A stretch of DNA of 64,000 bases from Acidimicrobiales bacterium (GTDB lineage: Bacteria > Actinomycetota > Acidimicrobiia > Acidimicrobiales > SZUA-35): NCBI GenBank assembly GCA_020629155.1, contig JAHDDW010000006.1, forward strand, positions 48,403 to 112,402, written 5' to 3'. The position numbers and the translations under genes are program-made. The notes under the pieces are model-generated. The model searched no databases and was not told the DNA's origin. It saw only the letters and a program-made list of their open reading frames with translations. The first letter of the stretch is position 1. Each line of letters begins with the position of its first letter. This document shows positions 2,672 to 62,446 of the stretch, in pieces.

Positions 2672-3664
2672 GTGGTGATAGTGTTACAAACCTATTACCG
2701 TATAGATGTGGAGAAAAAGTATGGATCATCTTGGAAGAACACTGTCTCGTCTTCTATCAAAACTGTACGGCATAATCAGAACCTAAAACCGCAACTCGCT
2801 GTTGCTCTTGTTCTCGTCCTTGTAGTCGGCACTGTGGTGTATTTCCAAGGTGGGCGTTCTGCTCAAGATCAGATTAGTCTTGCAGACGAATCTGTATCCG
2901 TTCTAGGTGAAGACGTCGTGAGTACCCAGGCAGCAACCTCAACCACGCTAGCTATAAACCCTCTATCCCAGCCAACAGGGACGCTTGTGGAAAGCACAAC
3001 AACCACAGGTGAAGAATCAGCTTCTACTGAAATCTCAAAACAAAAACCTGTCGGTTACCCGCCTTCTCCCAAACGAACACAATGCCAGAGCTATTATGGT
3101 GCCTCAGTCGCTAATGTGGCTTTTGCTCAAATGACAGAGAACGAAGAGACAACAACAACCGAAGCTCAAACAACCACAACAGAAGCTGAAACAACTACAA
3201 CGGCAAAACCCACTACAACACAGGCACCTACTACATCAGAGCCAACAACAACTAAAGCGCCTACGACTAAAGCACCTACAACGACGGCGAGGCCGACCAC
3301 GACACAAGCTCCAGCGACAACCGCAGCTCCAACAACAGCACAACCTGCGACAACTAACCCACACCCAAGCGGCTGGGTAAACGCAGGTCATAATGTGTAT
3401 GTTCCCAAAGTTTTAATCGTTATACGATGTTGTGAATCTACAGGCAATTACACTGCCGCAAATGCTCATTCAACAGCACGAGGCGCCTATCAATTCCTAA
3501 CAGGAAGTTGGGCTTACTATGGCCACAAAGATCGCTATGGTGCCAGCCAAGCGCATCTAGCATCTCCAGCGCAACAAGATGAAGCAGCGCTGAAAACTTG
3601 GGAACGAGACGGCACTCGTCCATGGAACGCTAGCAAAGCTTGCTGGGGACAAAACCCTGTTTGA
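2672..3664 (+). CDS. membrane-anchored secreted protein with a C-terminal transglycosylase-like (Rpf/SLT-like) domain
   Basis: A TM helix (LAVALVLVLVVGTVVYF) is followed by a long T/P/A-rich linker. The C-terminal segment CCESTGNYTAANAHSTARGAYQFLTGSWAYYG...WNASKACW resembles the CESGGN...YQF..STW transglycosylase-like signature. The exact start is uncertain (GTG 2672 or a downstream codon). Confidence 0.65.
   Translation: MVIVLQTYYRIDVEKKYGSSWKNTVSSSIKTVRHNQNLKPQLAVALVLVLVVGTVVYFQGGRSAQDQISLADESVSVLGEDVVSTQAATSTTLAINPLSQPTGTLVESTTTTGEESASTEISKQKPVGYPPSPKRTQCQSYYGASVANVAFAQMTENEETTTTEAQTTTTEAETTTTAKPTTTQAPTTSEPTTTKAPTTKAPTTTARPTTTQAPATTAAPTTAQPATTNPHPSGWVNAGHNVYVPKVLIVIRCCESTGNYTAANAHSTARGAYQFLTGSWAYYGHKDRYGASQAHLASPAQQDEAALKTWERDGTRPWNASKACWGQNPV
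3147..3358 (+). repeat. coding low-complexity repeat (TTTT-E-A / PTTT-K/Q-A units)
   Basis: The translation reads ETTTTEAQTTTTEAETTTTAKPTTTQAPTTSEPTTTKAPTTKAPTTTARPTTTQAPATTAAPTTAQPATT. The DNA is an imperfect ACA/ACC-rich tandem stretch inside CDS 2672-3664. Confidence 0.8.
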
Positions 3665-5196: not shown

Positions 5197-5263
5197 AAGG
5201 GATGTCTATTAATTATACATCCCTTCAGTATTCCCGCTCCGCTCAGGGTTGGCACGCAGCTTT
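5197..5263 (+). repeat. copy A of the recurrent intergenic element (hairpin plus CCGCTCCGCT box)
   Basis: AAGGGATGT-ctattaattat-ACATCCCTT is a perfect 9-bp stem (5197-5225). It is followed by CAGTATTCCCGCTCCGCTCAGGGTTGGCACGCAGC. The copy lies between the murA start and the DUF1501 stop, antisense to both. Confidence 0.7.
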
Positions 5264-5365
5264 GGGTCTGCATCTATGAAATCATTCAGTAGACAAACAT
5301 ATTGCATGCGTTAAATTGGAATTCACTACCTCAAATCTTTTACAGTAGAAAAGAGGTATTCCCGT

Positions 5366-6745
5366 TTAAACAAAATCGAGCAGCTCTGGCTCGCCTTCCA
5401 TCACAGCGCCGGCTTCAACGCCGCACCATTTCTCGGCCAAGGTAGCAAGGTAGCTAGAATAAAGCACGTTTGTTCTAAGGTTTCCATTTGCTAAGTCAGT
5501 TAACGAAGCAGGCTCGCCATGATCGCCAGGATGCACGGGGCCAACAACACACAGCGTTGACCCTGCGCCGTGATCGAACCCACTGCCGTTCTCCGCTACT
5601 CGACGACCAAACTCGCTTGTCATCGCAACACAAACATCTTGCTCGCGGCCAATTTCTTCCATCTGTGTTAGGAAATGATCAATCGCGTAGTCTACGCCTT
5701 TCATTAACTGGGCGTGCCTGTTGGCATGGTTAGTGTGGGTGTCAAAGCCACCAATGCGTGCGTGAATAACACGAGTGCCATTGTCTGCTTTGATAAACTC
5801 TGTGGCCATAGAAAGCTGTTGAAGTAGCTGTGTCGGCGTGCCTTCAGGATGAACTTTGGGGTCGAATTTGTATTCTTTACCAGGTAGAGAAGATGACAAC
5901 GAAAATGTTTTTTTCCAAGAAGTGAGCATTTGCGTTGTCATAGGCCCACCTTGGTTTTGAAGCAAGGCACCTCGGTAGTCAGCAAATCTGGCTGCATCAC
6001 TCGTGACAATGTTTAATTCGTTAAAGTTCTGAAAACCAAGAACGCTGGCGTTTGCGCCATTAAACCACGGAGAGTGTCCAGCAACTGAAACGCCAACTAA
6101 CGGCGAGTTGGCGTCATCAAGCTGATCTACGACTCTTGCTAGGAAACCAGTACGCGTTCCGGTTGCTCCTGCCGCGTCACCGCGTTCGCAGCGTTTCTCC
6201 ATATCGAAATGCGACTGGGTTCCATCGTTGCCATGGCCAACACCATGAACAACAGCAAACTGCCTTCCATGAATGCGCTCTAAATGAGGGCTTAAACCGA
6301 AATCGTCGCTGTATGGCAAAACATCAGCTTCTGGAATAGCTAGCTTAGGTCGGGCATCATAGTAGGCACCATCATTGCGGGGGATAACCGTTGAAAGACA
6401 ATCATTGCCTCCTTGAAGCGTGACCACAACAAGCACGCGATTTTTGGGATCGCCAGGAACTAACAGCCCAGCTTGCTCTCGAGGGTCTATTTCTTTGACA
6501 GTTGTTGATGGGGAAGTGATTCGCTGCTGCGAACTTGTACCCACAGGTAACGTGCTTGCAGGCGATGTAGCAGAGTCAGAACTGATGCCACTTTTGTTCT
6601 GTGATAGGGCTAGAAATGCTCCAGCTCCGACCGCTCCGCTTGTGAGTAGTCCAAGTAAGAATCGTCGTCGTGTAACGCTAAGCTTCACCGAAGGAGAAGC
6701 AGCGTCTGCGTTACTGGTTGGTTCGTTAATTTGTGGATCGCTCAT
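5366..6745 (-). CDS. DUF1501 family protein with a twin-arginine signal
   Basis: The Tat-like motif is TRRRFLLGLLTSGAVGAGAF. GGFDTHTNHANRH and SEFGRR are DUF1501/sulfatase-like motifs. The preferred start is ATG 6745, whose ATGA overlaps the stop of the upstream DUF1800 gene. The track start at 6784 is an alternative. Confidence 0.8.
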   Translation of the reverse strand: MSDPQINEPTSNADAASPSVKLSVTRRRFLLGLLTSGAVGAGAFLALSQNKSGISSDSATSPASTLPVGTSSQQRITSPSTTVKEIDPREQAGLLVPGDPKNRVLVVVTLQGGNDCLSTVIPRNDGAYYDARPKLAIPEADVLPYSDDFGLSPHLERIHGRQFAVVHGVGHGNDGTQSHFDMEKRCERGDAAGATGTRTGFLARVVDQLDDANSPLVGVSVAGHSPWFNGANASVLGFQNFNELNIVTSDAARFADYRGALLQNQGGPMTTQMLTSWKKTFSLSSSLPGKEYKFDPKVHPEGTPTQLLQQLSMATEFIKADNGTRVIHARIGGFDTHTNHANRHAQLMKGVDYAIDHFLTQMEEIGREQDVCVAMTSEFGRRVAENGSGFDHGAGSTLCVVGPVHPGDHGEPASLTDLANGNLRTNVLYSSYLATLAEKWCGVEAGAVMEGEPELLDFV

Positions 6746-8385: not shown

Positions 8386-8994
8386 GTGGCTAGAGCATTA
8401 ACATTTATTGATGATGATGACACATTTGAAGTGGCGGTCGAAAAAGTTGACCGAAAAAAAGTCTATGGCTGGGTTGACCGTAAACCTGTTGACCGTGAAG
8501 GTAACAGTTGTTTCCTTGGGTCTGTTTCGGCAGATGGTTTACATATCTTCAGCCGCGAATCATTTGAAATGGGCCATGTTGATTCGCAAGGGCGTTGGGT
8601 CGAAAAAAGCGAATTGCAAGCAGTTGACAGCGACGGCGAAGCGTTAGAAAAAGAAGAGTCGTCTTTTAAACAGCAGCTAAAACTAGAAGAAACAGTCTCG
8701 ATTGATTTTTATCTTGACCATATTGTCAAGTCCGTGTACGAAATAGCAGAGCCAGGGGAGTTGCTTGCAAAAGTTCAAGCAAGCGAAGCGATCTTTACGT
8801 TTCCTTTTAACTACACGGCCTCATATGAGCCGTCGCCTGCGTTTCTTATAGAAAATGACGGCACGCTATTTATGGTTGTCGGTCAACCCGCTGGTTTTGA
8901 ATTTATAAGCAAACCAGAAGTAGAGAATGTAGTTCTGTTCGACGAAGAGGACGAAGAAAGCGCTGCAGATGATCTTGACTTCAGCATGATGTAG
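8386..8994 (+). CDS. acidic hypothetical protein with an acidic C-terminal tail
   Basis: 202 aa with no motif I recognise. It is strongly D/E-rich and ends in VVLFDEEDEESAADDLDFSMM. Its stop codon abuts repeat copy B. Confidence 0.55.
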   Translation: MARALTFIDDDDTFEVAVEKVDRKKVYGWVDRKPVDREGNSCFLGSVSADGLHIFSRESFEMGHVDSQGRWVEKSELQAVDSDGEALEKEESSFKQQLKLEETVSIDFYLDHIVKSVYEIAEPGELLAKVQASEAIFTFPFNYTASYEPSPAFLIENDGTLFMVVGQPAGFEFISKPEVENVVLFDEEDEESAADDLDFSMM

Positions 8995-9061
8995 GGGCAT
9001 CTCTGCGAGATTGTAGATGCCCCTGGTTTATCCGCTCCGCTTGGGCCGTTCCACGGAGGTT
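8994..9061 (+). repeat. copy B of the recurrent intergenic element (hairpin plus box plus GGAGG module)
   Basis: GGGGCATCT-ctgcgagattgt-AGATGCCCC is a perfect 9-bp stem (8994-9023). It is followed by TTTATCCGCTCCGCTTGGGCCGTTCCACGGAGGTT (9027-9061). The element starts at the last base of the TAG stop of 8386-8994. Confidence 0.75.
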
Positions 9062-9125
9062 GGGCTTGCGCCTGTTAAGGCAAGTTCCTAAAAATCGATT
9101 AGTGAAATTTCTATGAAAGAAAAGT

Positions 9126-9833
9126 ATGAAAACAATAAATATTGCTGATAGTCAGAATCGTAATTCGACAGTGGTTTTGACACCAAAAAAAGCGGTGGCA
9201 CGTTTGGCGTATGCAACGAAAGAAGCTGAACCTGTGCAGTCTGTGCGTGTTGTGAAAAACACCTTAGATACTGATTTTGCTACCTTAACAAAAGAAACTT
9301 CAGCCGAAGAACTTTCACAACTTCTTGTCGACGGTGACCCTGAAATAGATTTTGAACTTTTTGGGAAACAAATCCAGAAGACCAATCGTATCTATTTAGG
9401 AGCAGACAACGAGCCAGCGCATGGTGTGCTTATCGAAGAAGAAGTCTTCGCAGCCGATGGCGAACTGCAAGAAACCCGTGCCGAGAAAGTGATCGAAGCA
9501 AATGTCAACACTGATATTCCAGTGCGTTGGACAGGAAAAATGCTGCCAAAAAACAAGTTTTATAGCAAGTTTGCGTTTGTTGCGGCTTACCAAATCACCC
9601 ACGTTGACGGCCTAACCTACGACTTCTTATATTCGATGGCAAAAGAGCTAGAAGAAAAAGAATCATTCATGCTCGTTACCGCAGGCGAAAAAGGTGACAA
9701 ACCGTTGGTCTTCACTCGAAACGCAACACAATATCGTGGCCTGCTTGAAGGACGAACACAAGGCGACAGTTACCTGCTGATAATGCACCTCTCAAACTTA
9801 GAATTAAAAGCACTCGCGAAAGGCGAAGAGTAA
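9126..9833 (+). CDS. hypothetical protein translationally coupled to the ligase gene
   Basis: 235 aa with no recognisable domain. Its TAA overlaps the ATG of the next gene (TAATG at 9831-9835). Confidence 0.6.
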   Translation: MKTINIADSQNRNSTVVLTPKKAVARLAYATKEAEPVQSVRVVKNTLDTDFATLTKETSAEELSQLLVDGDPEIDFELFGKQIQKTNRIYLGADNEPAHGVLIEEEVFAADGELQETRAEKVIEANVNTDIPVRWTGKMLPKNKFYSKFAFVAAYQITHVDGLTYDFLYSMAKELEEKESFMLVTAGEKGDKPLVFTRNATQYRGLLEGRTQGDSYLLIMHLSNLELKALAKGEE

Positions 9834-11278
9834 TGTCAAAAATTGATGCAGCGAAAATGACAGCACACGCCAACGGCGTGAAAATAGGAGCAGCAGCAAT
9901 CACTGATGTTACGCTGCATGGACGCGCGAAAGAGTACAAAAAAAATATTGCGTCTCGCTATAAATTGTATTCTGAGCGAGATATACGAAGTTTCGGTGAA
10001 GAAAAGTTTTACACCTCAATCAAATACGATGGGCAGTTGCACTTTCTCTATAAAGATAGCGACGAGATCTTTTTGTTTAATCCGAACGGCAGAGTCGTGC
10101 AAGATCTTGCTTGTTTGCAAAAAGCGCAAGAAGCTCTAAGCGAAGTAGACCAAGCGTTTCTTGTTGGTGAGCTGTACGCACCGAATGACGAAGGGCGCTC
10201 GCGAGTTTATGACGTGACATCTGCTTTAGGATCGACTGCCGGTGATGTCGCAGCTAACCTAGTATTTGCAGTTTTCAACGTGCTTGAAGTTGCTGGTGAA
10301 ACCTTTCAAGGAGAACCAGCAGAGAAAGCAGTTTCTTGGTTGGAAAAGACGGTGCCAGTTGATGGACTTTTCCACCGAGTCGAGCAGGCTTTACTTGGCA
10401 AAGCAGAGATCATGTCGCTCTATAGCAAAGAGGTCATAGAGAATGGTCGTGAAGGTCTAGTTTGTGTGGCGGCAGAAACGCCAGCGATCTATAAAATAAA
10501 GCAGCGTCATAATGTGGATGCTGTTGTCGTTGGCTTCACTGAACGACCTGATGAGCCAGGCAAAATCCGTGTCCTACTTACTGCATTGCAGCGCCCTGAT
10601 GGTTCATTTCAAATATTTTCCAAAGTGGGTGGAGGTTTTAACGAAGAAGAGCGCCGCAGCGTGTTTGACAAATTGTACAAAGACGCGGTGCCTTCTGAAT
10701 ATAAAGAGGTTGATCGTAATCATACGCTTTTCACCATGGTCGAACCTAAACATGTGCTAGAAGTTTCGTTTCTAGATCTGATCACCGAAAATGGTTCTGG
10801 TAGCCCACAGATGAAAGCGGTGCTGAACTATACCGAAAACGGCTACGAGGCGTGTCTAGCGGAACGGTTTGTGACAGTGCTAGCGCCAACATTTAGCCGA
10901 TTTCGTGAAGATAAGGCAGTTAACCCGCAAGATTTACGCCTTGAACAGCTACGGGATCTTGTTGACCTTGACAACCTAGACGGTGCAGCTCGTCAGCTTG
11001 ATTTAGATGAGGCATCTGTTTGTGAACGTCAAGTCTTCACAAAAGAAACAAAAGGTTTGGTGAGTGTGCGTAAATTTGTTTCATGGAAGACAAACAAAGA
11101 GAATCTTGATGCAAGCTTTCCTCCGTATGTGTTTTGTTTCGTTGATTATAGCCCAGCGAGAAAAAGTCCTATGAAACGTGTGGTACGGACTGCGCAAACC
11201 GTTGAAGAGATTGCAGCGATTCAAGAAGATTTTGTCGAGAAAAATGTTAAAAAAGGTTGGGTTGCAGCAGACTTGTAG
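9833..11278 (+). CDS. ATP-dependent DNA ligase-like nucleotidyltransferase with a C-terminal extension
   Basis: All six ligase motifs are readable: I SIKYDGQ (KxDG), III FLVGELY, IIIa LVFAVFNVL, IV EGLVCV, V IYKIKQRHNVDAVVVGF, VI FSRFREDK. An unassigned tail of roughly 100 aa follows. Confidence 0.8.
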   Translation: MSKIDAAKMTAHANGVKIGAAAITDVTLHGRAKEYKKNIASRYKLYSERDIRSFGEEKFYTSIKYDGQLHFLYKDSDEIFLFNPNGRVVQDLACLQKAQEALSEVDQAFLVGELYAPNDEGRSRVYDVTSALGSTAGDVAANLVFAVFNVLEVAGETFQGEPAEKAVSWLEKTVPVDGLFHRVEQALLGKAEIMSLYSKEVIENGREGLVCVAAETPAIYKIKQRHNVDAVVVGFTERPDEPGKIRVLLTALQRPDGSFQIFSKVGGGFNEEERRSVFDKLYKDAVPSEYKEVDRNHTLFTMVEPKHVLEVSFLDLITENGSGSPQMKAVLNYTENGYEACLAERFVTVLAPTFSRFREDKAVNPQDLRLEQLRDLVDLDNLDGAARQLDLDEASVCERQVFTKETKGLVSVRKFVSWKTNKENLDASFPPYVFCFVDYSPARKSPMKRVVRTAQTVEEIAAIQEDFVEKNVKKGWVAADL

Positions 11279-16474: not shown

Positions 16475-16507
16475 GAAGTAACTCGAACTACTTTAAAGCA
16501 ATGTAGC

Positions 16508-16548
16508 AAAGAGGCTGGCGTCTAAAGACGCCAGCCTCTTTGGGTTTT
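16508..16548 (+). terminator. Rho-independent terminator after rpsA
   Basis: AAAGAGGCTGGCGTC-taaa-GACGCCAGCCTCTTT is a perfect 15-bp stem. It is followed by GGGTTTT. Confidence 0.85.
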
Positions 16549-19550: not shown

Positions 19551-20846
19551 ATGAGCGAAGAATATGACTTCTCTAATCTTAACTTCGAAAGTTTCTCGGT
19601 AGATGGTTCGACATCAGCAGATGAAGAAACAGCGTTTCGCCTAGAAAACGGAGTTTCAATAGCGGTTGTCGATGCAGACCAAGCAGTTTGTGACTACTTG
19701 TCGTCGATGTTTGAAGGCTCAGTTGATTCAGCTTTTTCTTTATCAGCGATGGAGAACCAGCTTGGGCTTTCTTCTAAAGTTGTGATCATGGGGCCATCGT
19801 GTGCCACAGATTCAGAACTAGCTATAGCGGAACGTTGGGCAAAGCAGCATCCACATGTGGCGACTATTTTGATAACCTCTGAGCTGACAACGCAGCTGCT
19901 GCGTAAAGCGCTTCGTGTCGGGGTCAAAGATGTCTTAGCTGCTCCTGTTGATCAAAGTCAACTTTTTGAGACGATCAACCGTGTTGCTGAAGGTCTTCCT
20001 GATGGACAAGAACTAGCCGAAACTGCGCTGAGTGCACCTGTTCTTGATGAATCAGTTTCTGGTCGTGTTATCAACGTTTTTTCAACTAAAGGCGGTTCTG
20101 GTAAGTCTGTCACAGCAACGAACCTAGGTGTTGCGTTGGCGAAACGTTCGTCGTTGCCGGTAGTGATCATTGACGGGCATCTGCAATTTGGAGATGTTGC
20201 TGTCATGCTAAAATTGCAACCTAAACATAGTGTCGTTGACGCTATCGCACAAATAGACAGCCTTGACGGTCAAATGATCCAACAGTTCATGACAGTTCAT
20301 GAGCCAAGCGGTTTGATGGTGCTTTCAGCACCGCTTGACCCCATGTTTGCTGACCAAGTGCAAGGTGAACAGATGGTCAGGCTCATCGAAGTTGCAAAAT
20401 CATTCGCAGGGCATGTGATTGTTGATCTCCCTGGTTTGTTTAATGAGGTTGTACTTAGCGCTATTGAAGCCAGCGATGATTTGCTTATCGTCGCTGAGCT
20501 CGATATCCCAAACATCAAAAATGTCAAAGTTGGTTTGCAAACTTTAGAAATGCTTAACATTCCTAAAGAACAGATCCATATTGTGATCAACCGAGCTGAT
20601 TCAAAAGTGAAGCTTGATGTTACAGAAGTGGAAAAAGCGCTTGGAGTGAAAGCAATAGCGCATATTCCTTCTGATGTTGTGGTGCCAATATCTGTTAATC
20701 GCAGCACGCCCGTTGTGATATCTGCACCAAAATCTGGTGTGGCAAGAGCCTTTGAAGAGTTAGCGTTGCGCTTTTCTGAACAAGACGCAGTGCTTGCTCC
20801 TAGCAGCAGCGGTGGCAGCAGTCTTAAAAAGTTTTTGGTTAGGTGA
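19551..20846 (+). CDS. tadZ: TadZ/CpaE-like ParA/MinD-family ATPase with an N-terminal receiver-like domain
   Basis: The deviant Walker A is VINVFSTKGGSGKSVTATNLGVALAKR. The N-terminal receiver-like fold ends in ...GVKDVLAAPVDQSQL. Confidence 0.82.
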   Translation: MSEEYDFSNLNFESFSVDGSTSADEETAFRLENGVSIAVVDADQAVCDYLSSMFEGSVDSAFSLSAMENQLGLSSKVVIMGPSCATDSELAIAERWAKQHPHVATILITSELTTQLLRKALRVGVKDVLAAPVDQSQLFETINRVAEGLPDGQELAETALSAPVLDESVSGRVINVFSTKGGSGKSVTATNLGVALAKRSSLPVVIIDGHLQFGDVAVMLKLQPKHSVVDAIAQIDSLDGQMIQQFMTVHEPSGLMVLSAPLDPMFADQVQGEQMVRLIEVAKSFAGHVIVDLPGLFNEVVLSAIEASDDLLIVAELDIPNIKNVKVGLQTLEMLNIPKEQIHIVINRADSKVKLDVTEVEKALGVKAIAHIPSDVVVPISVNRSTPVVISAPKSGVARAFEELALRFSEQDAVLAPSSSGGSSLKKFLVR

Positions 20847-20860
20847 TGACTACCTCGCCC

Positions 20861-20899
20861 CAGTGTTCCGCTGCGATCGGATCGTTTCCATGTAGGTTT
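20861..20899 (+). repeat. copy E of the recurrent intergenic element
   Basis: CAGTGTTCCGCTGCGATCGGATCGTTTCCATGTAGGTTT aligns with copy C (GTATTTCCGCTCCGCTCGGGCCATTCCATGGAGGTTT). It sits in the 124-nt gap between tadZ and tadA. Confidence 0.55.
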
Positions 20900-20970
20900 C
20901 AGCGGATCGCTGTGTATGCAATTTGACAGAAAACAAAAATTTACCAGTTTGATGGATAGAAGGAGCCCCC

Positions 20971-24330: not shown

Positions 24331-24370
24331 CTGTAAAGGATAGGGTAGGCGCTACTTTATATTCTCATCT

Positions 24371-24401
24371 AGTGAACACTCTGAGCGCTGCGGAAATACT
24401 G
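24371..24401 (-). repeat. copy G of the recurrent intergenic element (box only, inverted)
   Basis: The reverse complement reads CAGTATTTCCGCAGCGCTCAGAGTGTTCACT. Compare copy A, CAGTATTCCCGCTCCGCTCAGGGTTGGCAC. Confidence 0.5.
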
Positions 24402-24457
24402 AGAGATGTGTGCTGAAAAGATATCCTGAGTAGCGATGTGCTGCTAGAATCGCCTGT

Positions 24458-26404
24458 GTGAATATTTCTGTTACTCTTCCTGATGGTTCTGCGAGAGAAT
24501 TAGAAGAAGGTTCAACCTTTTCTGATCTTGCCGCTTCGATAGGCTCGCGCCTTGCTAAAGATGCTGTTATCGGTGTCGCTGATGGGCAAGAGGTTGATTT
24601 GACAACACCAGTGCAAGCCGATCAAAATGTTGCTGTTGTGGTCGCCGATAGCGATCGTGGTTTGCATACAATTCGACATTCAACGGCGCATGTTCTGGCG
24701 CAAGCAGTTCTAGAGCTTTGGCCTGATGCAACCTTTGCTATCGGTCCGCCGATCGAAAACGGTTTTTATTATGATTTTGATCTTGGTGGCGATGCATTCA
24801 ACGATGACGATCTTGAAAAGATTGACGCGAAGATGCGTGAAATTATTGCTGCTGATCAGCCATTTATTCGCAGTGAAATGTCTGCAGCTGATGCTAAAGA
24901 AGTTATGGCGCAGCATAAATATAAGCGAGAGATTATCGATCGTGTGTCGGCTCACGAAGACGACAGCGAATTAGCTGGTGAAGCCGATGGCGATGTCATT
25001 AGCTTCTATCGCAATAGCGATCAATTTATTGATATGTGCATGGGTCCGCATGTGCCGTCGACTGCTCGTCTCGGTCATTTCAAGCTTATGAAAGTTGCTG
25101 GTGCATATTGGCGAGGTAGCGAAAAAAATCCGATGCTGCAACGTATTTATGGCACAGCATGGGCAACAAGAAAGCAGCTGAAGCAGCATCTTGTTCGTCT
25201 TGAGGAAGCCGCAAAACGCGATCACCGTAAGTTAGCAAATGAGCTTGATTTGCTGTCTTTCCCGCCTGAACTTGGCGGTGGTTTAGCTGTTTGGCATCCT
25301 AAGGGCGCCATCATTCGAAAGTTGATGGAAGATTATTCTCGTAAGCGTCACGAAGAGGGCGGCTATGAGTTTACGTATACGCCGCATTTGGCAAACGCTA
25401 AACTGTTTGAAACATCTGGTCACCTCGATTTTTATGAAGACGGCATGTATCCGCCGATGGAGATGGATAACGGCACTTACTATCCTAAACCAATGAACTG
25501 CCCAATGCATGTGCTTGTCTATAAGGCGCAGCAACGTTCCTATCGCGAGTTGCCGCTGCGTTTGTTTGAGTTGGGTACGGTGTATCGCTATGAGCGTGCA
25601 GGCACATTGCATGGGCTTATGCGCATCCGAGGGTTCACACAAGATGATTCCCACATTTTTGTGACGCAAGAAGAGTTGGCCAAAGAGTTGGCTAGTTTGT
25701 TAGCGTTCGTTCTTTCGGTCTTGCGGGCGTTTGGGTTTGAAGAGTTTCAAGCGAAACTTTCAACAAAACCTGAAGGTAAGGCTGTCGGTGGCGATGAAAT
25801 TTGGGATCATGCCACGCAGGCGTTGCGTGCAGCACTTGAAGAAGCTCAAATAGACTATGTTGTTGACGAGGGTGGCGGCGCTTTTTATGGCCCTAAGATC
25901 GATGTTGATGTGCGCGATGCGATTGGTCGTTCATGGCAACTTTCAACAATTCAGGCCGATTTTAATTTGCCTGAACGGTTCGATTTGGAATATGTCGCTG
26001 CTGATGGCACTCGTAAACAGCCAGTAATGGTGCATCGTGCGTTGTTCGGTTCTGTTGAGCGGTTCTTCGGTGTTCTGACTGAGCATTTCGCTGGGAACTT
26101 CCCGTTGTGGCTTGCTCCTGTGCAGGTTGAGGTGCTTCCAGTGGCCGAAGCTCACAACGAATATGCACAGAAAGTAGAACAACTCTTGACAGATAAAGGC
26201 TTGCGTGTGCAAACAACGTTGGCGACCATGCCGTTAGGTAAACGGATCCGCAATGCTAAGAAACAGAAACTGCCGTATGTGCTTGTTGTCGGTGATGATG
26301 ATGTGGCGCAGCAAAGCGTGGGTGTTAACCCTCGTGGCGGCGAAGTGGAACGTGGTGTGCCGCTAGATACGTTTGCTCTTCAGCTAACTGAAGAGTTAGC
26401 TTAG
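24458..26404 (+). CDS. thrS: threonine--tRNA ligase
   Basis: 648 aa. It has a TGS-like N-terminus, the editing-domain motif HSTAHVLAQAV, and class II core motifs YRELPLRLFELGTVYRYE and GFTQDDSHIF. Confidence 0.95.
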   Translation: MNISVTLPDGSARELEEGSTFSDLAASIGSRLAKDAVIGVADGQEVDLTTPVQADQNVAVVVADSDRGLHTIRHSTAHVLAQAVLELWPDATFAIGPPIENGFYYDFDLGGDAFNDDDLEKIDAKMREIIAADQPFIRSEMSAADAKEVMAQHKYKREIIDRVSAHEDDSELAGEADGDVISFYRNSDQFIDMCMGPHVPSTARLGHFKLMKVAGAYWRGSEKNPMLQRIYGTAWATRKQLKQHLVRLEEAAKRDHRKLANELDLLSFPPELGGGLAVWHPKGAIIRKLMEDYSRKRHEEGGYEFTYTPHLANAKLFETSGHLDFYEDGMYPPMEMDNGTYYPKPMNCPMHVLVYKAQQRSYRELPLRLFELGTVYRYERAGTLHGLMRIRGFTQDDSHIFVTQEELAKELASLLAFVLSVLRAFGFEEFQAKLSTKPEGKAVGGDEIWDHATQALRAALEEAQIDYVVDEGGGAFYGPKIDVDVRDAIGRSWQLSTIQADFNLPERFDLEYVAADGTRKQPVMVHRALFGSVERFFGVLTEHFAGNFPLWLAPVQVEVLPVAEAHNEYAQKVEQLLTDKGLRVQTTLATMPLGKRIRNAKKQKLPYVLVVGDDDVAQQSVGVNPRGGEVERGVPLDTFALQLTEELA

Positions 26405-26468
26405 GCGATGTCTTCTATTGTGCATCCACTGTATTTTCGCTTCGCTCAGGGCGTTAGCACGCAGTCTT
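26402..26468 (+). repeat. copy D of the recurrent intergenic element (decayed hairpin plus box)
   Basis: TAGGCGATGTCTTCTATTGTGCATCCACTGTATTTTCGCTTCGCTCAGGGCGTTAGCACGCAGTCTT starts at the thrS TAG stop. It shares the exact 14-mer GCGTTAGCACGCAG with copy F. Confidence 0.6.
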
Positions 26469-26485
26469 AACAGTTAAGGATTTTC

Positions 26486-34132: not shown

Positions 34133-34172
34133 TAGAAATCCCCTGATCATAATCAGGGGATTTCTATTTGTT
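34133..34172 (+). terminator. Rho-independent terminator
   Basis: TAGAAATCCCCTGAT-cata-ATCAGGGGATTTCTA is a perfect 15-bp stem. It is followed by TTTGTT. Confidence 0.85.
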
Positions 34173-36318: not shown

Positions 36319-37239
36319 ATGAAAGAAAAATCAAATTCACATGAGAGTTCTATCCACAACCCTCATGATTCAGTAGTCAAAAAGTTCTTTACTGCGCGAA
36401 CTATGAAAGAATTTCTAGAAGAATATTTCCCTTACGGATTATGTAAGGAAATCAATCTTGATTCTTTGACTTTATGCGACACTGAGTTCATCAGTTCTGA
36501 ACTTGTACGTTCTTCTGCGGATCTTCTATTTAAGGCCGATTGTAGCCATGAAAGATGGACCTATGTTTACGTCTTGTTTGAACACAAAAGTCAACCCGAA
36601 CGTGAAGTCGCATTGCAGTTGTTGCGATACATTGTTAACATCTGGAGCAAAGGTAAACCTGAACTAGTGCTGCCTATTGTATTTTATCATGGCAAAGAGA
36701 GCTGGAATATAGAGACAAGCTTTCAGGCATCAGTGTTTCCTGGAATGCCAGAGATTCTTCGTTCATGCACACCAGAATTTGACTATTGGCTTTTTGATGT
36801 CCAGTCTTTGGGCGATTTCGATGTTGAAGTAGTTTCTGAATTGCAGGCACTACTCCTGGTTCTAAAAGCGTTAAGTAGCCAGAACCCTTACCTTTATCTG
36901 GAAAGACACAGCAATATGGTGTTAAAATGGATCATAGGGAATTCAATAAACAAAGAAAAACTTGAATCTCTGATGAGATACCTAGCAGATCAAACGAATG
37001 AGTTGGATGATTATAAGCAATTTGAGACTCAACTACTCGAACAAGGAGCAAAAATGCCAAGCGTATTAGAACAACTTACACAACAAGGCCTTGAGCAGGG
37101 TCTTGAGCAGGGTCTTGAACAAGGGCTAGAGCAAGGGGTCGAACAAGTAGCAAAAAAGATGCTTGGCAAAGGCTATAGCATAGCCGAAATCGAGGAAGTC
37201 ACAGGCCTTAAACAAACAAGAATTACAGAGCTTAAGTAA
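36319..37239 (+). CDS. Rpn-family recombination-promoting nuclease / putative transposase (YhgA-like PD-(D/E)xK)
   Basis: HDSVVKKFF...ADLLFKADCSHERWTYVYVLFEHKSQPEREVALQLLRYIVNIW matches the Rpn/YhgA-like core. The C-terminus carries (GLEQ)n repeats. The locus looks A/T-richer than its neighbours by eye. Confidence 0.75.
   Translation: MKEKSNSHESSIHNPHDSVVKKFFTARTMKEFLEEYFPYGLCKEINLDSLTLCDTEFISSELVRSSADLLFKADCSHERWTYVYVLFEHKSQPEREVALQLLRYIVNIWSKGKPELVLPIVFYHGKESWNIETSFQASVFPGMPEILRSCTPEFDYWLFDVQSLGDFDVEVVSELQALLLVLKALSSQNPYLYLERHSNMVLKWIIGNSINKEKLESLMRYLADQTNELDDYKQFETQLLEQGAKMPSVLEQLTQQGLEQGLEQGLEQGLEQGVEQVAKKMLGKGYSIAEIEEVTGLKQTRITELK
37087..37146 (+). repeat. five tandem 12-bp units encoding (GLEQ)x4-GVEQ
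   Basis: The units are ggccttgagcag, ggtcttgagcag, ggtcttgaacaa, gggctagagcaa and ggggtcgaacaa, all inside the Rpn-family CDS. Confidence 0.9.
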
Positions 37240-43343: not shown

Positions 43344-43425
43344 GCAACTGATTTTTTCTTGTAGGAGCGTTTAGATAGTTGCATATAAAAACCTGCGTGG
43401 CAATGCATGAAGTAAGGCATACCTG

Positions 43426-46401: not shown

Positions 46402-46791
46402 ATGGTGACAAATAATGTTCGATTCGGAAATGTATATGAGACGCTTGGCAAGGACTGGTTCGTAGCAGTCATTGACCGTTTCTATGACAAAGTTGAAACT
46501 GACGATCTATTGCGTCGGCTCTATCCTCAAGATCTTACTGAATCGCGTGATCATATGGTGAAGTTTCTTATCCAATTCTGGGGCGGCCCAACTACATATA
46601 GCGATGAACGTGGTCATCCTCGTTTGCGTATGCGCCACATGCCTTTTGAAATTGGCCAAGCTGAGCGAGATGCTTGGATGAAACATATGCGAGAAGCTGT
46701 ACAAGAAGGAAACCTTCAAGCCGAGCTAGAACAACAGATGCTTGACTATTTCGAGCGCGCTGCCACTCATACGATCAACACAGCATCGTAA
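46402..46791 (+). CDS. glbO: group II truncated haemoglobin
   Basis: FYDKVETDDLLRRLYPQDLTESRDHMVKFLIQFWGGPTTYSDERGHPRLRMRHMPFEIGQAERDAWMKHM closely follows the trHbO sequence pattern. Confidence 0.88.
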   Translation: MVTNNVRFGNVYETLGKDWFVAVIDRFYDKVETDDLLRRLYPQDLTESRDHMVKFLIQFWGGPTTYSDERGHPRLRMRHMPFEIGQAERDAWMKHMREAVQEGNLQAELEQQMLDYFERAATHTINTAS

Positions 46792-48107: not shown

Positions 48108-48139
48108 TGCGCAAAAACAAAAAATAGTGTTTTTGCGCA
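48108..48139. promoter_or_regulatory. perfect 11-bp inverted repeat TGCGCAAAAAC-N10-GTTTTTGCGCA in a divergent promoter region
   Basis: The arms are at 48108-48118 and 48129-48139. The repeat lies between the SRPBCC gene start (48051, -) and the ATPase gene start (48180, +). Confidence 0.45.
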
Positions 48140-53609: not shown

Positions 53610-54206
53610 ATGAAAAAAAATTCGTTAAAAATGTTAGGTTTTGCTTTTTCTGCAGCAGTAGTGTTTGCTTCTTGCGGCTCAGATGGCGAAGGCAGTTCAA
53701 CAACTAATGACCAAGTTGCGACAACAGCTGATGAGCCATCTTCAGCTGAAGTAACAACAACAATAGACGATGTCGCAGAGGCATCAACAACTGCTGTCAG
53801 CGGTGCTACAAGTGTTGCAGGAGCTGCCGAGACAACTGTTAATGCCGATGAAAGTGCTGCATTGGTGGAATTTTCTAACACAGGTTCTTTCGGCGATATC
53901 GCCGTTAACAGTGATGGCATGACGCTTTATGGCTTTGTGCCAGATCTTGATGCTAAAAAAGTTACATGTGAGGGAGGCTGTGCTACAGCTTGGCCTCCTG
54001 TAACTGTGCCTTCTGAAGAACTCCCTGAAGGATTAAGTGCGGAACTTTTCTCTGTCACCGAAGGTCCGAATGGTTTCCAACTACAGATAGCAGATGTGCC
54101 GCTTTATCTTTATCAAAGTGATAGTGCTCCTGGCGACACTAAAGGTCAAGGCGTCGGCAGCAAATGGTATGTTGTTGGTCCTGATGGCAGCCTTATCAAG
54201 TCATAA
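53610..54206 (+). CDS. lipoprotein with COG4315-type secreted repeats (Lipoprotein_15-like)
   Basis: The lipobox is AAVVFASCGSD. The two repeat halves are MTLYGFVPD...CEGGCATAWPPV and VPLYLYQSDSAPGDTKGQGVGSKWYVVGPDG. Confidence 0.7.
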   Translation: MKKNSLKMLGFAFSAAVVFASCGSDGEGSSTTNDQVATTADEPSSAEVTTTIDDVAEASTTAVSGATSVAGAAETTVNADESAALVEFSNTGSFGDIAVNSDGMTLYGFVPDLDAKKVTCEGGCATAWPPVTVPSEELPEGLSAELFSVTEGPNGFQLQIADVPLYLYQSDSAPGDTKGQGVGSKWYVVGPDGSLIKS

Positions 54207-54207
54207 A

Positions 54208-54251
54208 TGCCATGCGTATTTCCGCTCCGCTCGGGCCATTCCATGGAGGTT
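54208..54251 (+). repeat. copy C of the recurrent intergenic element (box plus GGAGG module)
   Basis: TGCCATGCGTATTTCCGCTCCGCTCGGGCCATTCCATGGAGGTT is near-identical to copy B across about 35 nt. It starts 2 nt after the stop of 53610-54206. Confidence 0.7.
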
Positions 54252-54372
54252 TTCACGTGTGCTTGTGCAAGCAAAAAGTAAACAAAAATTATTTTAAGAG
54301 ATAGACTGTAGTATTCAAAGAGCTGCGTCTCGATCTGAGACGCAGCTCTTTGACTTACTTAAGGAGAATGTT

Positions 54373-60462: not shown

Positions 60463-60557
60463 ATGTCTGAGCCTACCAGCCGCTTGTAACTGTCGTCTTT
60501 AACTTGAGGCTATCTCTGTTTATTGCTTCTCCGCTGAATCGCTTTACCCAAAACCCG

Positions 60558-60628
60558 CTAAAAGCTGCGTGCTAACGCGTTAAGCGCAGCGGAAATAAAG
60601 TGGGCATCTACAATTATTAGAGATGCCC
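60558..60628 (-). repeat. copy F of the recurrent intergenic element (full copy, inverted orientation)
   Basis: The reverse strand reads GGGCATCT-ctaataattgt-AGATGCCC-a-CTTTATTTCCGCTGCGCTTAACGCGTTAGCACGCAGCTTTTAG. The hairpin is at 60602-60628 (8-bp perfect stem). Its arm contains the track ATG (60623) of the ABC exporter. Confidence 0.75.
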
Positions 60629-62446
60629 TTGCTTGAAGATCAAGATCCTAGTCTTAGCCTGTACGCTGACATGATGCAACAAGTTCCTAGAACCGCCAAA
60701 GAACTCTTTATCGAGGTCGGCAAGCCGTATCGGAAGAAGTTTTTTCTTTTCTTTTTATTAGGCGGTATTGGCTCATTTTTTTGGATGACAACGCCATATG
60801 TTGTAGCAAAAATAATTGATGCACTAACTGAGACTCCATCGATCACCAACATCGTTGTGTGGCTTCTGGTTTTATTCGTTTTTCTGCGATTCGCCGAAGA
60901 AACGTTGTGGCGTGCAGCTGAATATGTCGCGCGATCTTTTGTTCCCGAGCTTGTAGAAGATGTGAGAATGTCGCTCTTTCGGTCGACGTTGGCAAAGTCT
61001 CACTACTATTTTGTGAACAGTAGCAGCGGACAGCTGGGACATTGGATTAACCAGGCATCAGCAACAACCAAAAACTTCATCTCAACAGTTTTCTGGAACA
61101 TGTGGGGTATGGCATTTAAACTTGTCGTCGCAGCAGGTTTCCTTTTCACGGTTCATTGGGCGCTCGCGTTGCTATTTATTGTTTGGCTCATCCTCCTCTT
61201 CGTTTTTACTGTTAAACGAGGTCGCACATTTAGCGAATTAATAGCTGACTGGGGAGAAGAAAAAAGCAAAGGCGCTGGCCAGGTAGTTGATGCTATGAGT
61301 AATCATCTTGCTGTTCGTTCATTTACAACGAAGAGCTATGAAGAAAAATTATTGGCTGCGCAACAGAGAAATATTGTGCGAAGTCGCAAAATTTCTTGGC
61401 GGCATAACTTGATCACAAACGCAGCGAAAGGGCAAAGCGCTAACGTCGCTGGCCTTTTAGGTCTTGTGTTCGCTGTCTGGTTATATGCCGAAGGGCAGAT
61501 TACGATCGGCGAACTTGTCTTGTTTATCGCCTATTTCGACGCAGCGTCAGTTGGTCTATGGAAACTGTCGTGGGCAATAAACGAGCTATATATGGACTAT
61601 GGGATGTTGAACAATGCATTGGAAGGCCTTCACGGCGCAGACGAGCGACAAGCATCTCTGCAAAATGCATCGAGTCAGTCAGAAGTAGCTAGCGATAGAA
61701 GTGTTACCGTAGTTCTTAACAACGTCGGCTTCGCATACCCAGATCAACCTGAAAGCAAAATTCTTTCCTCGTTCGATCTGAAGATAGAGCCAAAACAAAA
61801 AGTTGGTGTCGTCGGCGGTAGCGGCGCAGGTAAGTCGACGCTCGTCGCGTTACTCCTAGCGTTCTATGATGCGACTGAAGGAGAAATACTAGTAAACGGA
61901 CAAACGCTACAGGAACAAGACCCTTCATTCATGCGTAGCCTGGCATCGTACGTGCCACAAGAAACTAACTTGTTTAACCGAACGATCAAAGAAAATGTTT
62001 TGTATGCCAAACTTGATGCGACAAATGCGCAGATAACTAGGGCGTTAGAGCTTGCCGAAGCGAGCGATTTTGTTGCTGCTCTTCCTAAAGGTATCGACAC
62101 ATTAATAGGAGAGCGAGGCGTGAAACTTTCAGGCGGACAACGCCAAAGAATTGCTATAGCGAGGGCCATTCTACGTGATGCGCCATTGCTGATCTTGGAC
62201 GAGGCAACAAGTGCGTTAGATAGCGTTAGTGAACAAGCCATTCAAAAGGCGTTACACACATTGATGCAGGACAGAACGGCTGTGGTAGTTGCACATCGCC
62301 TTTCCACGCTAAAACATCTAGACAAAATTATTGTTATGGATCAAGGCCGTGTTGTTGAGTGCGGCAATCACAACGAGCTACTCGTGCTAGACGGTAACTA
62401 CGCCGATTTATGGAAGCGTCAAAAAGATGGTTTCCTCGCTGCGTAA
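60623..62446 (+). CDS. ABC exporter, fused permease/ATPase (MsbA/MdlB-like)
   Basis: The N-terminal half is a six-TM domain. Walker A is GGSGAGKST, the signature is LSGGQRQRIAIARA, and Walker B is LLILDEATSALD. The start is uncertain: ATG 60623 lies inside a repeat hairpin and ATG 60671 (MMQQVP...) is in frame. Confidence 0.9.
   Translation: MPLLEDQDPSLSLYADMMQQVPRTAKELFIEVGKPYRKKFFLFFLLGGIGSFFWMTTPYVVAKIIDALTETPSITNIVVWLLVLFVFLRFAEETLWRAAEYVARSFVPELVEDVRMSLFRSTLAKSHYYFVNSSSGQLGHWINQASATTKNFISTVFWNMWGMAFKLVVAAGFLFTVHWALALLFIVWLILLFVFTVKRGRTFSELIADWGEEKSKGAGQVVDAMSNHLAVRSFTTKSYEEKLLAAQQRNIVRSRKISWRHNLITNAAKGQSANVAGLLGLVFAVWLYAEGQITIGELVLFIAYFDAASVGLWKLSWAINELYMDYGMLNNALEGLHGADERQASLQNASSQSEVASDRSVTVVLNNVGFAYPDQPESKILSSFDLKIEPKQKVGVVGGSGAGKSTLVALLLAFYDATEGEILVNGQTLQEQDPSFMRSLASYVPQETNLFNRTIKENVLYAKLDATNAQITRALELAEASDFVAALPKGIDTLIGERGVKLSGGQRQRIAIARAILRDAPLLILDEATSALDSVSEQAIQKALHTLMQDRTAVVVAHRLSTLKHLDKIIVMDQGRVVECGNHNELLVLDGNYADLWKRQKDGFLAA

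Follow-up and report, generated by a model that had tools for sequence, protein, structure and literature searches.

Small palindromic intergenic repeats have been well studied in Proteobacteria but are hardly described in Acidimicrobiia, an abundant and mostly uncultured group of freshwater and marine actinobacteria. An actinobacterial repeat of another kind, the MIRU (40–100 bp), occupies operon spacers and overlaps flanking stop and start signals; MIRU units are direct and tandem, all face the same way with respect to transcription, and lack a terminal hairpin. HUH enzymes, which act at IS200/IS605 ends, relaxase nic sites, and rolling-circle origins, read a hairpin together with the adjacent single-stranded sequence. 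REP elements have stems of 5–13 bp and loops of 2–20 nt, their termini are a frequent source of TAG stop codons, and uni-REPs sit tight against the 3′ end of the preceding ORF (PMC3733652). Actinobacteria are not mentioned in that survey (PMC3733652). In the REP–RAYT system, a hairpin is read structure-specifically beside a single-stranded segment that is read sequence-specifically (PMC3479197).

The hairpin considered here, hairpin 1, is the left end of a larger dispersed intergenic repeat of 80–140 bp. Seven copies and one fragment lie in the window (the whole stretch of DNA that was analyzed, 64,000 nucleotides), an eighth copy, H, lies 2.5 kb past the window end, and a ninth, L089, is found in an unrelated metagenome contig; the GC contents of the two genomes are 46% and, for the L089 contig, 39.6%. 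The seven window copies are recovered by nhmmer with E values of 1e-12 to 1e-33, along with the fragment, and the motif TYCCGCTCCGCTYRGG with up to three mismatches occurs 9 times against 1.9 expected (0 of 100 shuffles). The repeat takes up at least eight gene spacers, with eight copies in ~69 kb, all of them intergenic. Each locus holds one unit, nhmmer finding no second unit nearby. The features are as follows.

Copy A, hairpin 1: 5197..5225, plus strand; 9-bp stem, 11-nt loop; DNA fold −7.2 kcal/mol, z −4.4
Copy A, whole element: 5197..5337, plus strand; nhmmer E 2e-27
Copy A, linker and core TATTCCCGCTCCGCTCAGG: 5229-5247
Copy A, GTTGGCACGCAG: 5248-5259
Copy A, 3′ module, end near CACTACCTCAAATC: 5324-5337
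Copy B: 8993..9104, plus strand; hairpin 1 at 8993-9024 (10 bp), core at 9028-9045
Copy C: 20840..20965, plus strand; core at 20865-20880, hairpin 1 a 4-bp remnant
Copy D: 24339..24428, minus strand; core at 24379-24398, hairpin region at 24400-24428
Copy E: 26402..26485, plus strand; core at 26432-26451, hairpin degraded
Copy I, partial: 43387..43406, minus strand; only the post-core block GCATTGCCACGCAGGTTTTT, upstream of trkH; weak match, E 0.6-2
Copy G: 54183..54311, plus strand; core at 54217-54235, 3′ module AGAGATAGACTGTAG at 54297-54311
Copy F: 60503..60630, minus strand; hairpin 1 at 60602-60628, core at 60579-60597, 3′ module AGAGATAGCCTCAAG at 60503-60517

The nine-copy set used below comprises A through H and L089, from two genomes; the alignable set (n = 8) comprises A, B, D, E, F, and G from the window together with H and L089. 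Short copies measure ~80 nt and full-length copies 130–140 nt. The element begins with a stem of 8–10 bp and a loop of 8–12 nt, followed by a linker of 6–8 nt, the core CCGCTSCGCT, and a CGTT..CAYGSAG block; longer copies add a 3′ module ending in ...AGAyAGCCT. The core holds a tandem YCGCT-YCGCT repeat and a CGTT motif. In copy F, the best-preserved full-length copy, one long-range inverted repeat matches the hairpin 5′ arm and loop with the 3′ module and a second matches the core with the downstream CAGCGGAG block.

The best reading of the repeat is that of a new REP/MITE-like family. As in REPs, its palindromic unit (27–32 bp) is GC-rich and dense in intergenic spacers, with stem and loop sizes in the REP range, its members differ by complementary stem changes, it abuts or overlaps the ORF upstream at its 3′ end, for which it can provide the TAG stop, and a conserved unpaired motif sits beside the hairpin. 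Here, however, that unpaired part is a ~45-nt 3′ tail with a 10-nt near-invariant core, whereas the REP tag is a 5′ GTAG or CGTC tetranucleotide conserved in >90% of members. The tetranucleotide just 5′ of the stem is GTAG in copy B only (CTAG, TTAG, CAAG, CAAG, AAAG, TCAG, TTTG, and GATG in the others), and CGTC stands 5′ of the stem in no copy. The repeat also differs from REPs in having no inverted dimers (REPINs), in that examination of 69 kb revealed no RAYT gene, and in its Acidimicrobiia-like actinobacterial host.

Compared with MITEs and long palindromic repeats (Correia/NEMIS, ERIC/IRU, RUP), the repeat shares their length of 80–140 bp and non-coding character. Like bacterial MITEs, it is dispersed in either orientation and inside transcription units, has filled and empty sites between relatives, and contributes stop codons or C-terminal residues, and in F and L089 the whole element folds as a long imperfect palindrome. 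Unlike them, it has weak terminal inverted repeats: complementarity between its inverted ends rises above the 95th percentile of shuffles in F and L089 alone and not in H, A, G, or D, the left end of copy F matching the 3′ module over 19 nt at 74% complementarity (99th percentile of shuffles). No target-site duplication can be defined, the only candidates, 2-nt matches at loosely placed ends (AA in H, TT in L089, CA in A and F), being indistinguishable from chance, and no parent IS is known for the repeat. With MIRUs it shares an actinobacterial host and a spacer position overlapping flanking gene signals, but it is present as a single copy per locus, occurs in both orientations, and begins with a palindrome.

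A reading of the sequence alone had described hairpin 1 in three copies: A (AAGGGATGT / ctattaattat / ACATCCCTT, 9 bp), B (AGGGGCATCT / ctgcgagattgt / AGATGCCCCT, 10 bp), and F (minus strand; GGGCATCT / ctaataattgt / AGATGCCC, 8 bp). The sequences are as it gave them, except that it counted 9 bp in the stem of B. Its central observation, the flip of a G-C pair into C-G between ATGT:ACAT and ATCT:AGAT, is real; relative to B and F, copy A has also lost one C:G pair, from both arms together, and differs at an outer position (A-T versus G-C). The stems of B and F are essentially the same, so that these three copies represent only two independent stems. The pattern GGGCATCT-N9-14-AGATGCCC occurs twice where 0 occurrences are expected.

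The nine copies fall into two clear groups. The hairpin is intact in A, B, F, H, and L089 (27–32 bp, stems of 8–10 bp, non-complementary loops of 8–12 nt), with DNA folds of −7.1 to −10.4 kcal/mol and z scores of −3.2 to −5.6 against shuffles; these hairpins are not a product of chance. All 44 pairs in the five intact stems are Watson–Crick, with no G-T pair. In C, D, E, and G, the hairpin is weak or absent (z about 0). It has been cut down in C by a deletion of ~17 nt, the hairpin region of D is mismatched and has no stable fold, and the hairpin of G (54183-54214) is weakened to ATGGCA/TGCCAT, 6 bp around an 18-nt loop. These four copies retain the downstream core, which argues that selection does not hold the fold at every locus.

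The two arms of hairpin 1 co-vary. Across the eight alignable copies, 4 of 10 stem pairs have changed on both sides, and a paired C:G insertion/deletion separates A and L089 from B, F, and H. Stem cells are paired in 81.8% of cases versus 74.4 ± 2.7% in shuffles (6 of 500 reach the observed value; n = 8), and the covariation score is 0.25 versus 0.15 (11 of 500; n = 8). When own-arm pairing is compared with arm-swapped pairing, the observed total is reached by 2 of 120 permutations for the five intact copies and by 80 of 40,320 for all eight. RNAalifold gives no net covariation bonus (+0.25 kcal/mol). Because the arms change in coordination, the palindrome has been maintained through sequence change and not only recently copied, in agreement with the earlier argument against simple recent duplication. 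Roughly four to six independent compensatory events are indicated, although this count and the sub-family structure are uncertain, given nine copies from two genomes.

In terms of segment conservation, the earlier premise of a conserved loop beside a different stem is reversed. Mean pairwise identity is lowest of all in the loop (0.55), intermediate in the arms (0.65–0.80), and highest in the core 10-mer (0.88–0.93), and the loop frame CT....ATTRT that had been proposed fails in H, G, and D. A loop no better conserved than its flanks is an outcome that the sequence-only reading had itself named as refuting. Tabulation of stem substitutions over the larger set (n = 8), by which the sequence-only reading was to be checked, returns co-variation of the arms. 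The claim of selection on a folded nucleic acid is partly supported: the arms co-vary, but the fold has been lost in four of nine copies. The linker and core TCAGTATTCCCGCTCCGCTCAGG (23 nt) are identical in copy A and L089 while the two stems differ by compensated changes, which places a sequence-specific part next to a structure-specific part.

The insertion status of the repeat is visible at two loci. Copy E takes up the entire thrS-hit spacer, which measures 81 nt here, its first three bases being the thrS TAG stop (26402-26404); the gene pair is syntenic in Acidimicrobiia, and the spacer is 5–46 nt in 11 of 12 Acidimicrobiia relatives (median about 7), with a 5-nt gene overlap in the twelfth. 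The spacer between the 202-aa and 235-aa genes is 131 nt with copy B and 47, 7, and 12 nt in relatives. The relatives compared at these filled and empty sites are distant (59–79% protein identity), and the exact junctions cannot be aligned. The nearest relative found (79% identity for a protein of the 202-aa/235-aa pair) has no copy in 20 kb, the examined loci of relatives of the 202-aa protein hold no copies, and a copy is present at 0 of 80 thrS loci of other genomes. Homology of the first hit codons to the CGATTC block of the element was considered and rejected, the HIT N-terminus being conserved in relatives without the element.

Copy orientation is not tied to transcription: four copies (and one fragment) are sense, three are antisense, and two lie in divergent spacers. 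Copy A runs antisense to the minus-strand genes on either side of it (DUF1501 and EPSP-synthase-like), copy D is antisense between a tadC-like gene and thrS, and copy F occupies the spacer from which a UvrD-like helicase gene and an ABC transporter gene diverge. Antisense copies have their right end 3–29 nt away from a stop codon. The upstream ORF has its stop codon at or in the hairpin in B, C, E, and G. Copy B lies in sense orientation between co-directional genes, and the TAG of the upstream 202-aa ORF (8992-8994) abuts and overlaps the first stem base; in copy C the upstream TGA stop (20844-20846) lies inside the 5′ arm; and hairpin 1 of copy G contains the last seven codons and TAA stop of the upstream lipoprotein ORF.

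We consider it about an even chance that the repeat is a lineage-specific, REP/MITE-like, non-autonomous mobile intergenic element, with hairpin 1 a terminal palindrome kept in those copies that spread. The element has inserted between the members of otherwise tightly packed gene pairs, entering their very short spacers in either orientation. Its mobilizing machinery, which we infer to act at the DNA level, would recognize the fold together with the adjacent invariant core, and the stem would for this reason stay paired through base changes; the machinery would most plausibly be a protein reading the DNA hairpin and a 3′ single-stranded tail. Only element lineages with an intact palindrome would go on spreading, giving rise to sub-families with different but paired stems, and older copies (C, D, E, and G) would decay since no constraint would act after insertion. 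The palindrome reads the same on both strands. The REP-like, DNA/protein-recognition alternative that the sequence-only reading had offered is the best fit to the wider evidence. Against the mobile reading, the identical 23-nt core in genomes of very different GC content could equally fit a host function.

Several searches bear on the distribution of the repeat. Two Logan contigs and one JGI contig terminate exactly inside the core, which indicates that the repeat is multi-copy elsewhere in both genomes. A metagenome pattern scan gave eight matches, one of them a true relative, and relatives of the L089 amidase yielded solely a 99% identical contig that begins inside the core. DNA similar to the repeat was found neither among plasmids (blastn) nor in viral contigs, where the scan returned only 42 chance 17-mers; megablast of an 8.2-kb window segment with copies A and B against phages gave no match, and a chimeric peptide query for ORFs called across element copies gave nothing at E ≤ 10. 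A phage origin was rejected on this empty phage search and the chromosomal housekeeping genes. A planctomycete origin, to which the DUF1501/DUF1800 pair had pointed, gave way to Acidimicrobiia in view of a 73% identical ThrS, the conserved thrS-hit synteny, and an Rpf domain. Within the window and flanks (69 kb; ~50 window ORFs scanned with Pfam), no transposase of a plausible kind was found; none of the ~50 window ORFs matches Y1_Tnp, and the sole “transposase” Pfam match is a YhgA/Rpn-like nuclease gene (36319-37239) that is not beside any copy.

A rather doubtful alternative is that the repeat is a host-useful RNA module, in which hairpin 1 at the stop codon acts as a 3′ stabilizer, a decay barrier, or a modulator of termination/re-initiation. 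Such roles have been demonstrated for some REP and ERIC copies, and selection on an RNA fold would explain the compensatory changes in the hairpin 1 stem. All four sense copies overlap the upstream stop codon; B and E, lying between the closely spaced genes of conserved pairs, must either be co-transcribed or contain the ribosome-binding site of the downstream gene; and copy G, between a stop codon and a strong, 17-bp terminator-like palindrome (54315-54353), lies within a 3′ UTR. RNA folding of the whole element gives significant stability for F, H, and L089 (z −2.9 to −3.5). However, three of eight orientable copies are antisense to both neighbors, and three of the four sense stop-codon copies (C, E, and G) are exactly those with degraded hairpins. 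The intact stems have no G-U pairs, RNAalifold gives no bonus, and covariation is confined to hairpin 1: hairpin 2 (CTSCG/CRSAG), rejected as a conserved helix, shows none, and 172 of 500 shuffles reach its observed pairing. An outer helix, CCGCT...AGCGG, was likewise rejected, since only F and C have it, and H in part. Rfam 15 has no match at gathering thresholds, at E ≤ 10, or on short excerpts with lax filters, which also disposes of a known RNA family, and its models for IS605-associated RNAs do not match. With copies in both orientations, Watson–Crick pairs only, no Rfam match, and no covariation in hairpin 2, nothing was gained for the RNA-specific version of the sequence-only reading.

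It is unlikely that the compensated stems reflect palindrome mechanics, in which one arm is rewritten from the other by intra-strand template switching or by repair, so that a mutation in one arm is either undone or mirrored and no functional constraint acts. The perfect Watson–Crick stems without wobble intermediates, the split of copies into perfect and clearly decayed classes, and the paired C:G indel, which is typical of template switching, are consistent with such a process. It should, however, extend complementarity into the loop, whereas the intact loops stay at 8–12 nt and non-complementary, and it leaves unexplained both the invariant non-palindromic core beside the hairpin and the occurrence of the same architecture in genomes of 46% and 39.6% GC.

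Similarly improbable is a reading of the hairpin and 3′ tail TATTYCCGCTSCGCT as the recognition/cleavage module of an undescribed single-stranded DNA transposition system or as a domesticated operon-spacer module. The former may belong to low-GC Acidimicrobiia and be REP-like, lacking the GTAG/CGTC tag and relying on another partner enzyme; the latter may place a hairpin at the upstream stop codon and supply the downstream ribosome-binding site. Either version would explain the identical 23-nt block in two genomes beside a stem that has drifted with compensation. The likeness to HUH sites, a hairpin of variable stem sequence beside a sequence-specific segment, is purely an architectural analogy; in contrast to those sites, no HUH gene was found and no cleavage site is defined for the repeat.

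We regard as very unlikely that the core is bound by a host regulator or an alternative sigma factor, the element then serving as a portable promoter/operator with hairpin 1 as accessory terminator or insulator of the upstream gene. Of nine copies, six (B, C, E, F, G, and L089) lie 50–150 nt upstream of a gene in sense orientation, several downstream genes function in DNA repair or oxidative stress (a DNA ligase cassette, the UvrD-like helicase, and AhpC), and the core, with its YCGCT-YCGCT tandem and CGTT, is the most conserved block, identical with its linker over 23 nt between the two genomes; but A, D, and H do not face a gene start, and the terminator-like palindrome separates copy G from ahpC. 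Consensus scans flagged no sigma-70-type promoter in the hairpin or core of any copy; one weak promoter-like match falls within an element (5290-5317, in the 3′ part of copy A), and promoter-like sites overall are no commoner than in shuffles. A terminator scan flagged neither hairpin 1 nor the core in any copy; hairpin 1 has no T run, a T-rich stretch beginning 3–5 nt past the stem, and its 8–12-nt loops and short stems are unlike the evident terminators of the genome (stems of 12–17 bp, loops of 4–8 nt). An ECF-type promoter with CGTT as the −10 element was rejected, because no −35 GGAAC stands at a suitable distance and three copies face the wrong way; a sigma-54-like reading of TTGGCACGCAGCTTTGG in copy A was rejected because other copies do not conserve that sequence and Actinobacteria are not known to carry RpoN. 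A tRNA-like origin of the core was dismissed, ARAGORN finding only the two true tRNAs.

If the repeat is merely another REP/MITE-like repeat, it is ordinary, compensated stem variants being known in such families. The family would provide an example where the mode of conservation distinguishes a hairpin read by structure from a tail read by sequence, and this could point to a new mobilizing enzyme. The element breaks short-read assemblies and inflates spacers in conserved operons such as thrS-hit, with consequences for the contiguity of MAGs, for operon prediction, and for gene calling at stop codons.

A longer repeat has hairpin 1 at its left end, followed by a 6–8-nt linker, a near-invariant core, CCGCTSCGCT, and the block CGTT..CAYGSAG. 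Allowing up to three mismatches, the motif TYCCGCTCCGCTYRGG is found nine times in the window against 1.9 expected, and seven of these are true copies that the profile search of the window also returned, at E values of 1e-12 to 1e-33. The other two matches, 6629–6644 and 46655–46670, are chance occurrences with support from no profile search. Logan contigs with the UvrD-like gene of the window reach 4.8 kb beyond the window end and contain an eighth copy, H; a pattern scan of metagenome contigs yielded one true relative, on L089 (39.6% GC; window, ~46%).

Copies of the element (in the window, by motif match and profile search unless noted) and hairpin 1 as 5′ arm / loop / 3′ arm
5197, + strand: copy A; hairpin 1 at 5197–5225, AAGGGATGT / ctattaattat / ACATCCCTT
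8993, + strand: copy B; hairpin 1 at 8993–9024, AGGGGCATCT / ctgcgagattgt / AGATGCCCCT
20840, + strand: copy C
24428, − strand: copy D
26402, + strand: copy E
43387–43406: fragment of the element, by profile search
54183, + strand: copy G
60630, − strand: copy F; hairpin 1 at 60602–60628, GGGCATCT / ctaataattgt / AGATGCCC
Past the window end: copy H, AAGGGCATC / tacttagtat / GATGCCCTT
Upstream of an amidase gene: L089 copy, GGGGATCT / tttcattgt / AGATCCCC, then the same core

In pairwise alignments, homology spans about −38 to +32 around the core in every case. It extends into a 3′ module, ...CGATTCAG...AATAAAyAgAGAyAGCCT, in F, H, and L089 and, with a weaker signal, in A, G, D, and C; with this module the element measures 130–140 nt. 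The module of copy F is an inverted copy of the hairpin 5′ arm and loop (19 nt, 74%), and its core has a second inverted repeat downstream (20 nt, 75%), so that the entire element could fold as a single long imperfect palindrome. Only F and L089 have a terminal complementarity above the 95th percentile of shuffles, and this fold is therefore tentative.

The hairpins of A, B, and F are present as a sequence-only reading had given them, with the correction that the stem of copy B, put at 9 bp, has ten pairs. Folded as single-stranded DNA, the intact copies of the hairpin reach −7.1 to −10.4 kcal/mol, and comparison with dinucleotide shuffles gives them z-scores of −3.2 to −5.6. The pattern GGGCATCT-N9-14-AGATGCCC occurs twice in the window and in none of 100 shuffles; hairpins perfectly paired over 8 bp or more number 25, compared with 10.6 ± 3.1 expected, and include those of A, B, and F. 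That reading was borne out only in part, however, as its argument from a conserved loop does not hold. The loop was ranked the least conserved segment, with a mean pairwise identity of 0.55 versus 0.65–0.80 for the arms (linker, 0.52–0.62; core, 0.88–0.93; post-core block, 0.66), and the proposed loop frame CT....ATTRT fits only A, B, F, and E. In G, E, D, and C the hairpin is lost (z ~0) and the core is kept, and 23 nt of tail are identical in copy A and L089 although their stems differ by compensated changes. There are thus two modes of conservation: the palindrome is conserved in its pairing rather than its sequence, and the adjacent tail in its exact sequence.

Covariation of the arms was assessed in a hand-fitted alignment of eight copies in structural register (A3). 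Paired stem cells amount to 81.8%, versus 74.4 ± 2.7% with 3′ letters shuffled (6 of 500 shuffles reach the observed value), and changes on both sides affect four of ten stem pairs and seven cells (6 of 500). The covariation score is 0.25 versus 0.15 (11 of 500), and slid registers give 32–55% pairing.

Variable stem positions, numbered from the loop outward
Position 2: C-G in B, F, H, and L089; G-C in A and E
Position 5: C-G in B, F, H, and G; pair missing in A, E, and L089 as scored (E is G-C in an alternative register)
Position 6: A-T in D; G-C in the other copies
Position 8: T-A in G
Position 9: A-T in A, H, and G; G-C in B, L089, and E; A×A in F

The 5′ arms pair better with their own 3′ arms than with those of other copies: the observed total was reached by only 2 of 120 arm-swapped permutations for the five intact copies and by 80 of 40,320 for all eight. 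The compensatory changes claimed earlier are upheld by shuffle and permutation tests, but they earn no net bonus in RNAalifold (covariation term, +0.25 kcal/mol), since compensated pairs are offset by broken ones. Because the copies are related, perhaps no more than four to six independent events lie behind the counts. A second hairpin (CTSCG / 13–15 nt / CRSAG) shows no covariation, with four of nine copies mismatched at its sole variable position.

Comparison with relatives reveals filled and empty sites. The thrS–hit pair is syntenic across Acidimicrobiia loci; its spacer is 5–46 nt in 11 of 12 relatives (median ~7) and a 5-nt gene overlap in the twelfth, whereas the window has 81 nt there, all of it copy E. 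Likewise, three relatives have 47, 7, and 12 nt between the genes for a 202-aa and a 235-aa protein; this spacer is 131 nt long, with copy B, in the window, where the junction at the 202-aa gene stop reads TAG|GGGCATCT instead of the TAG|GGCC of a 79%-identical relative. The element is absent from 20 kb of that relative, from three further relatives, and from 80 thrS loci of other genomes. Copies D (24339–24428) and E (26402–26485) flank thrS, inverted to each other with hairpin ends toward the gene; as the thrS–hit synteny is ancient, the arrangement seems fortuitous and not that of a composite element.

Copies B, C, E, and G and the fragment lie in sense orientation between co-directional genes; A, D, and H are antisense to their neighbors, with the right end of antisense copies 3–29 nt from a stop codon, and F and L089 occupy divergent spacers. 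Each of the four sense copies has the stop of the upstream ORF at or within its hairpin: TAG lies on the junction of B and of E, TGA is found four bases into C, and seven codons and TAA are within the hairpin of G. Three contigs, two from Logan (SRR14415273/4) and one from JGI (Ga0114956), end exactly within the core (L135 end, equivalent to window ~54222; L136 end; L138 start), and both host genomes are affected. These ends mark a repeat that the assembler failed to cross, and the breakage of independent short-read assemblies there indicates that the repeat limits the contiguity of these MAGs.

The element resembles REPs in the size of its unit, in the lengths of stem and loop, in having stem variants that differ by complementary changes, in lying near ORF 3′ ends, and in supplying TAG stops (PMC3733652); it differs in that the GTAG/CGTC tag defining REPs is missing in eight of nine copies and in lacking inverted dimers. 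The 69 kb covered by the analysis show no RAYT gene. MITE-type repeats (Correia, ERIC, RUP) share its size, free orientation, filled versus empty sites, and, in copy F, the long palindromic fold, but the element has only weak terminal inverted repeats, and a target duplication could not be defined at its copies. Rfam gave no match, at curated thresholds or permissively with short excerpts, and phage, plasmid, and viral collections held no similar DNA. With defining features missing, the element belongs to neither family, although it is of the same general kind; among small palindromic intergenic repeats it represents a variant, from an acidimicrobial lineage, that had not been described before.

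Its natural history is most likely that of a small non-autonomous mobile repeat, as suggested by its lineage-restricted, patchy distribution, its insertion in either orientation into minimal spacers, its overlap with gene ends, and the coexistence of intact copies with decayed ones. REP-associated and IS200/IS605 tyrosine/HUH transposases and relaxases read a DNA hairpin together with a neighboring single-stranded segment, and the paired palindrome and exact tail would, by analogy, suit such enzymes. All 44 pairs of the intact stems are Watson–Crick; with the strand-symmetric palindrome and free orientation, this favors a DNA-level palindrome over an RNA helix and selection at the level of element spread. 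Sub-families would proliferate only with a paired terminus and copies would decay once inserted, a scheme on which our confidence is evenly balanced. A role for RNA at stop codons within operons is doubtful: the sense copies do sit on stop codons, but the same three features suit a DNA palindrome better. The REP-like branch of the sequence-only reading is the better supported one. Three of the four sense copies on stop codons have degraded hairpins, which neither the favored nor the rival view fully explains; a stable hairpin at a stop codon might be harmful. Self-correction of the palindrome by template switching, which would yield paired arms without selection, is unlikely. A portable regulator or promoter site is less likely still, sigma-70 promoter and terminator scans having left hairpin and core unflagged in every copy and made one weak promoter-like match within an element (5290–5317, 3′ part of copy A). 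That the DNA-level repeat marks a new hairpin-reading mobilization system or a domesticated operon-spacer module is an improbable extension.

Long perfect palindromes with A/T-run flanks follow genes at 16507–16542, 34133–34166, 48108–48139, and 54315–54353, the last between copy G and ahpC. With 12–17-bp stems and 4–8-nt loops they are quite unlike hairpin 1, and they probably serve as the true bidirectional intrinsic terminators of this genome.

The window is bacterial chromosome, encoding PolA, ribosomal protein S1, ThrRS, a Tad pilus locus, PdxS/T, TrkAH, and UvrD. Its ThrRS is 73% identical to those of Acidimicrobiales MAGs that share its thrS–hit gene order, which, with an encoded Rpf domain, places it in Acidimicrobiia; the L089 amidase likewise has relatives in Acidimicrobiales/Actinomycetota. 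The Rpf-like gene (PF06737, 2708–3664) has a Thr/Pro-rich region made up of 18–21-nt periodic repeats at 3145–3361 (seven copies of ~37 nt, 62–78% identity). ARAGORN found only tRNA-Lys(CTT) and tRNA-His(GTG), in tandem at 2372–2539 (−); one Logan contig starts within the tRNA-His gene, ~50 nt from its upstream end. The 202-aa and 235-aa proteins, both without a Pfam match, form a cassette with an ATP-dependent DNA ligase (8386–11278) that recurs in distant genomes (L091, 10001–12875; L139, 10001–12757), in one genome among uvrA, uvrB, and uvrC, and may be an uncharacterized DNA-repair module. The window's only transposase-like match, a YhgA/Rpn-like Transposase_31 ORF (36319–37239), adjoins no element copy and has near its 3′ end a 12-nt tandem repeat, GTCTTGAGCAGG, of 3–4 units (37088–37137). 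A 74-aa ORF (63282–63506, −), whose corresponding Logan gene call matches the BrnA-antitoxin Pfam family, is adjoined upstream by a 96-aa ORF (63506–63796, −), and the two (63282–63796) may constitute a BrnT/BrnA-type toxin–antitoxin pair.
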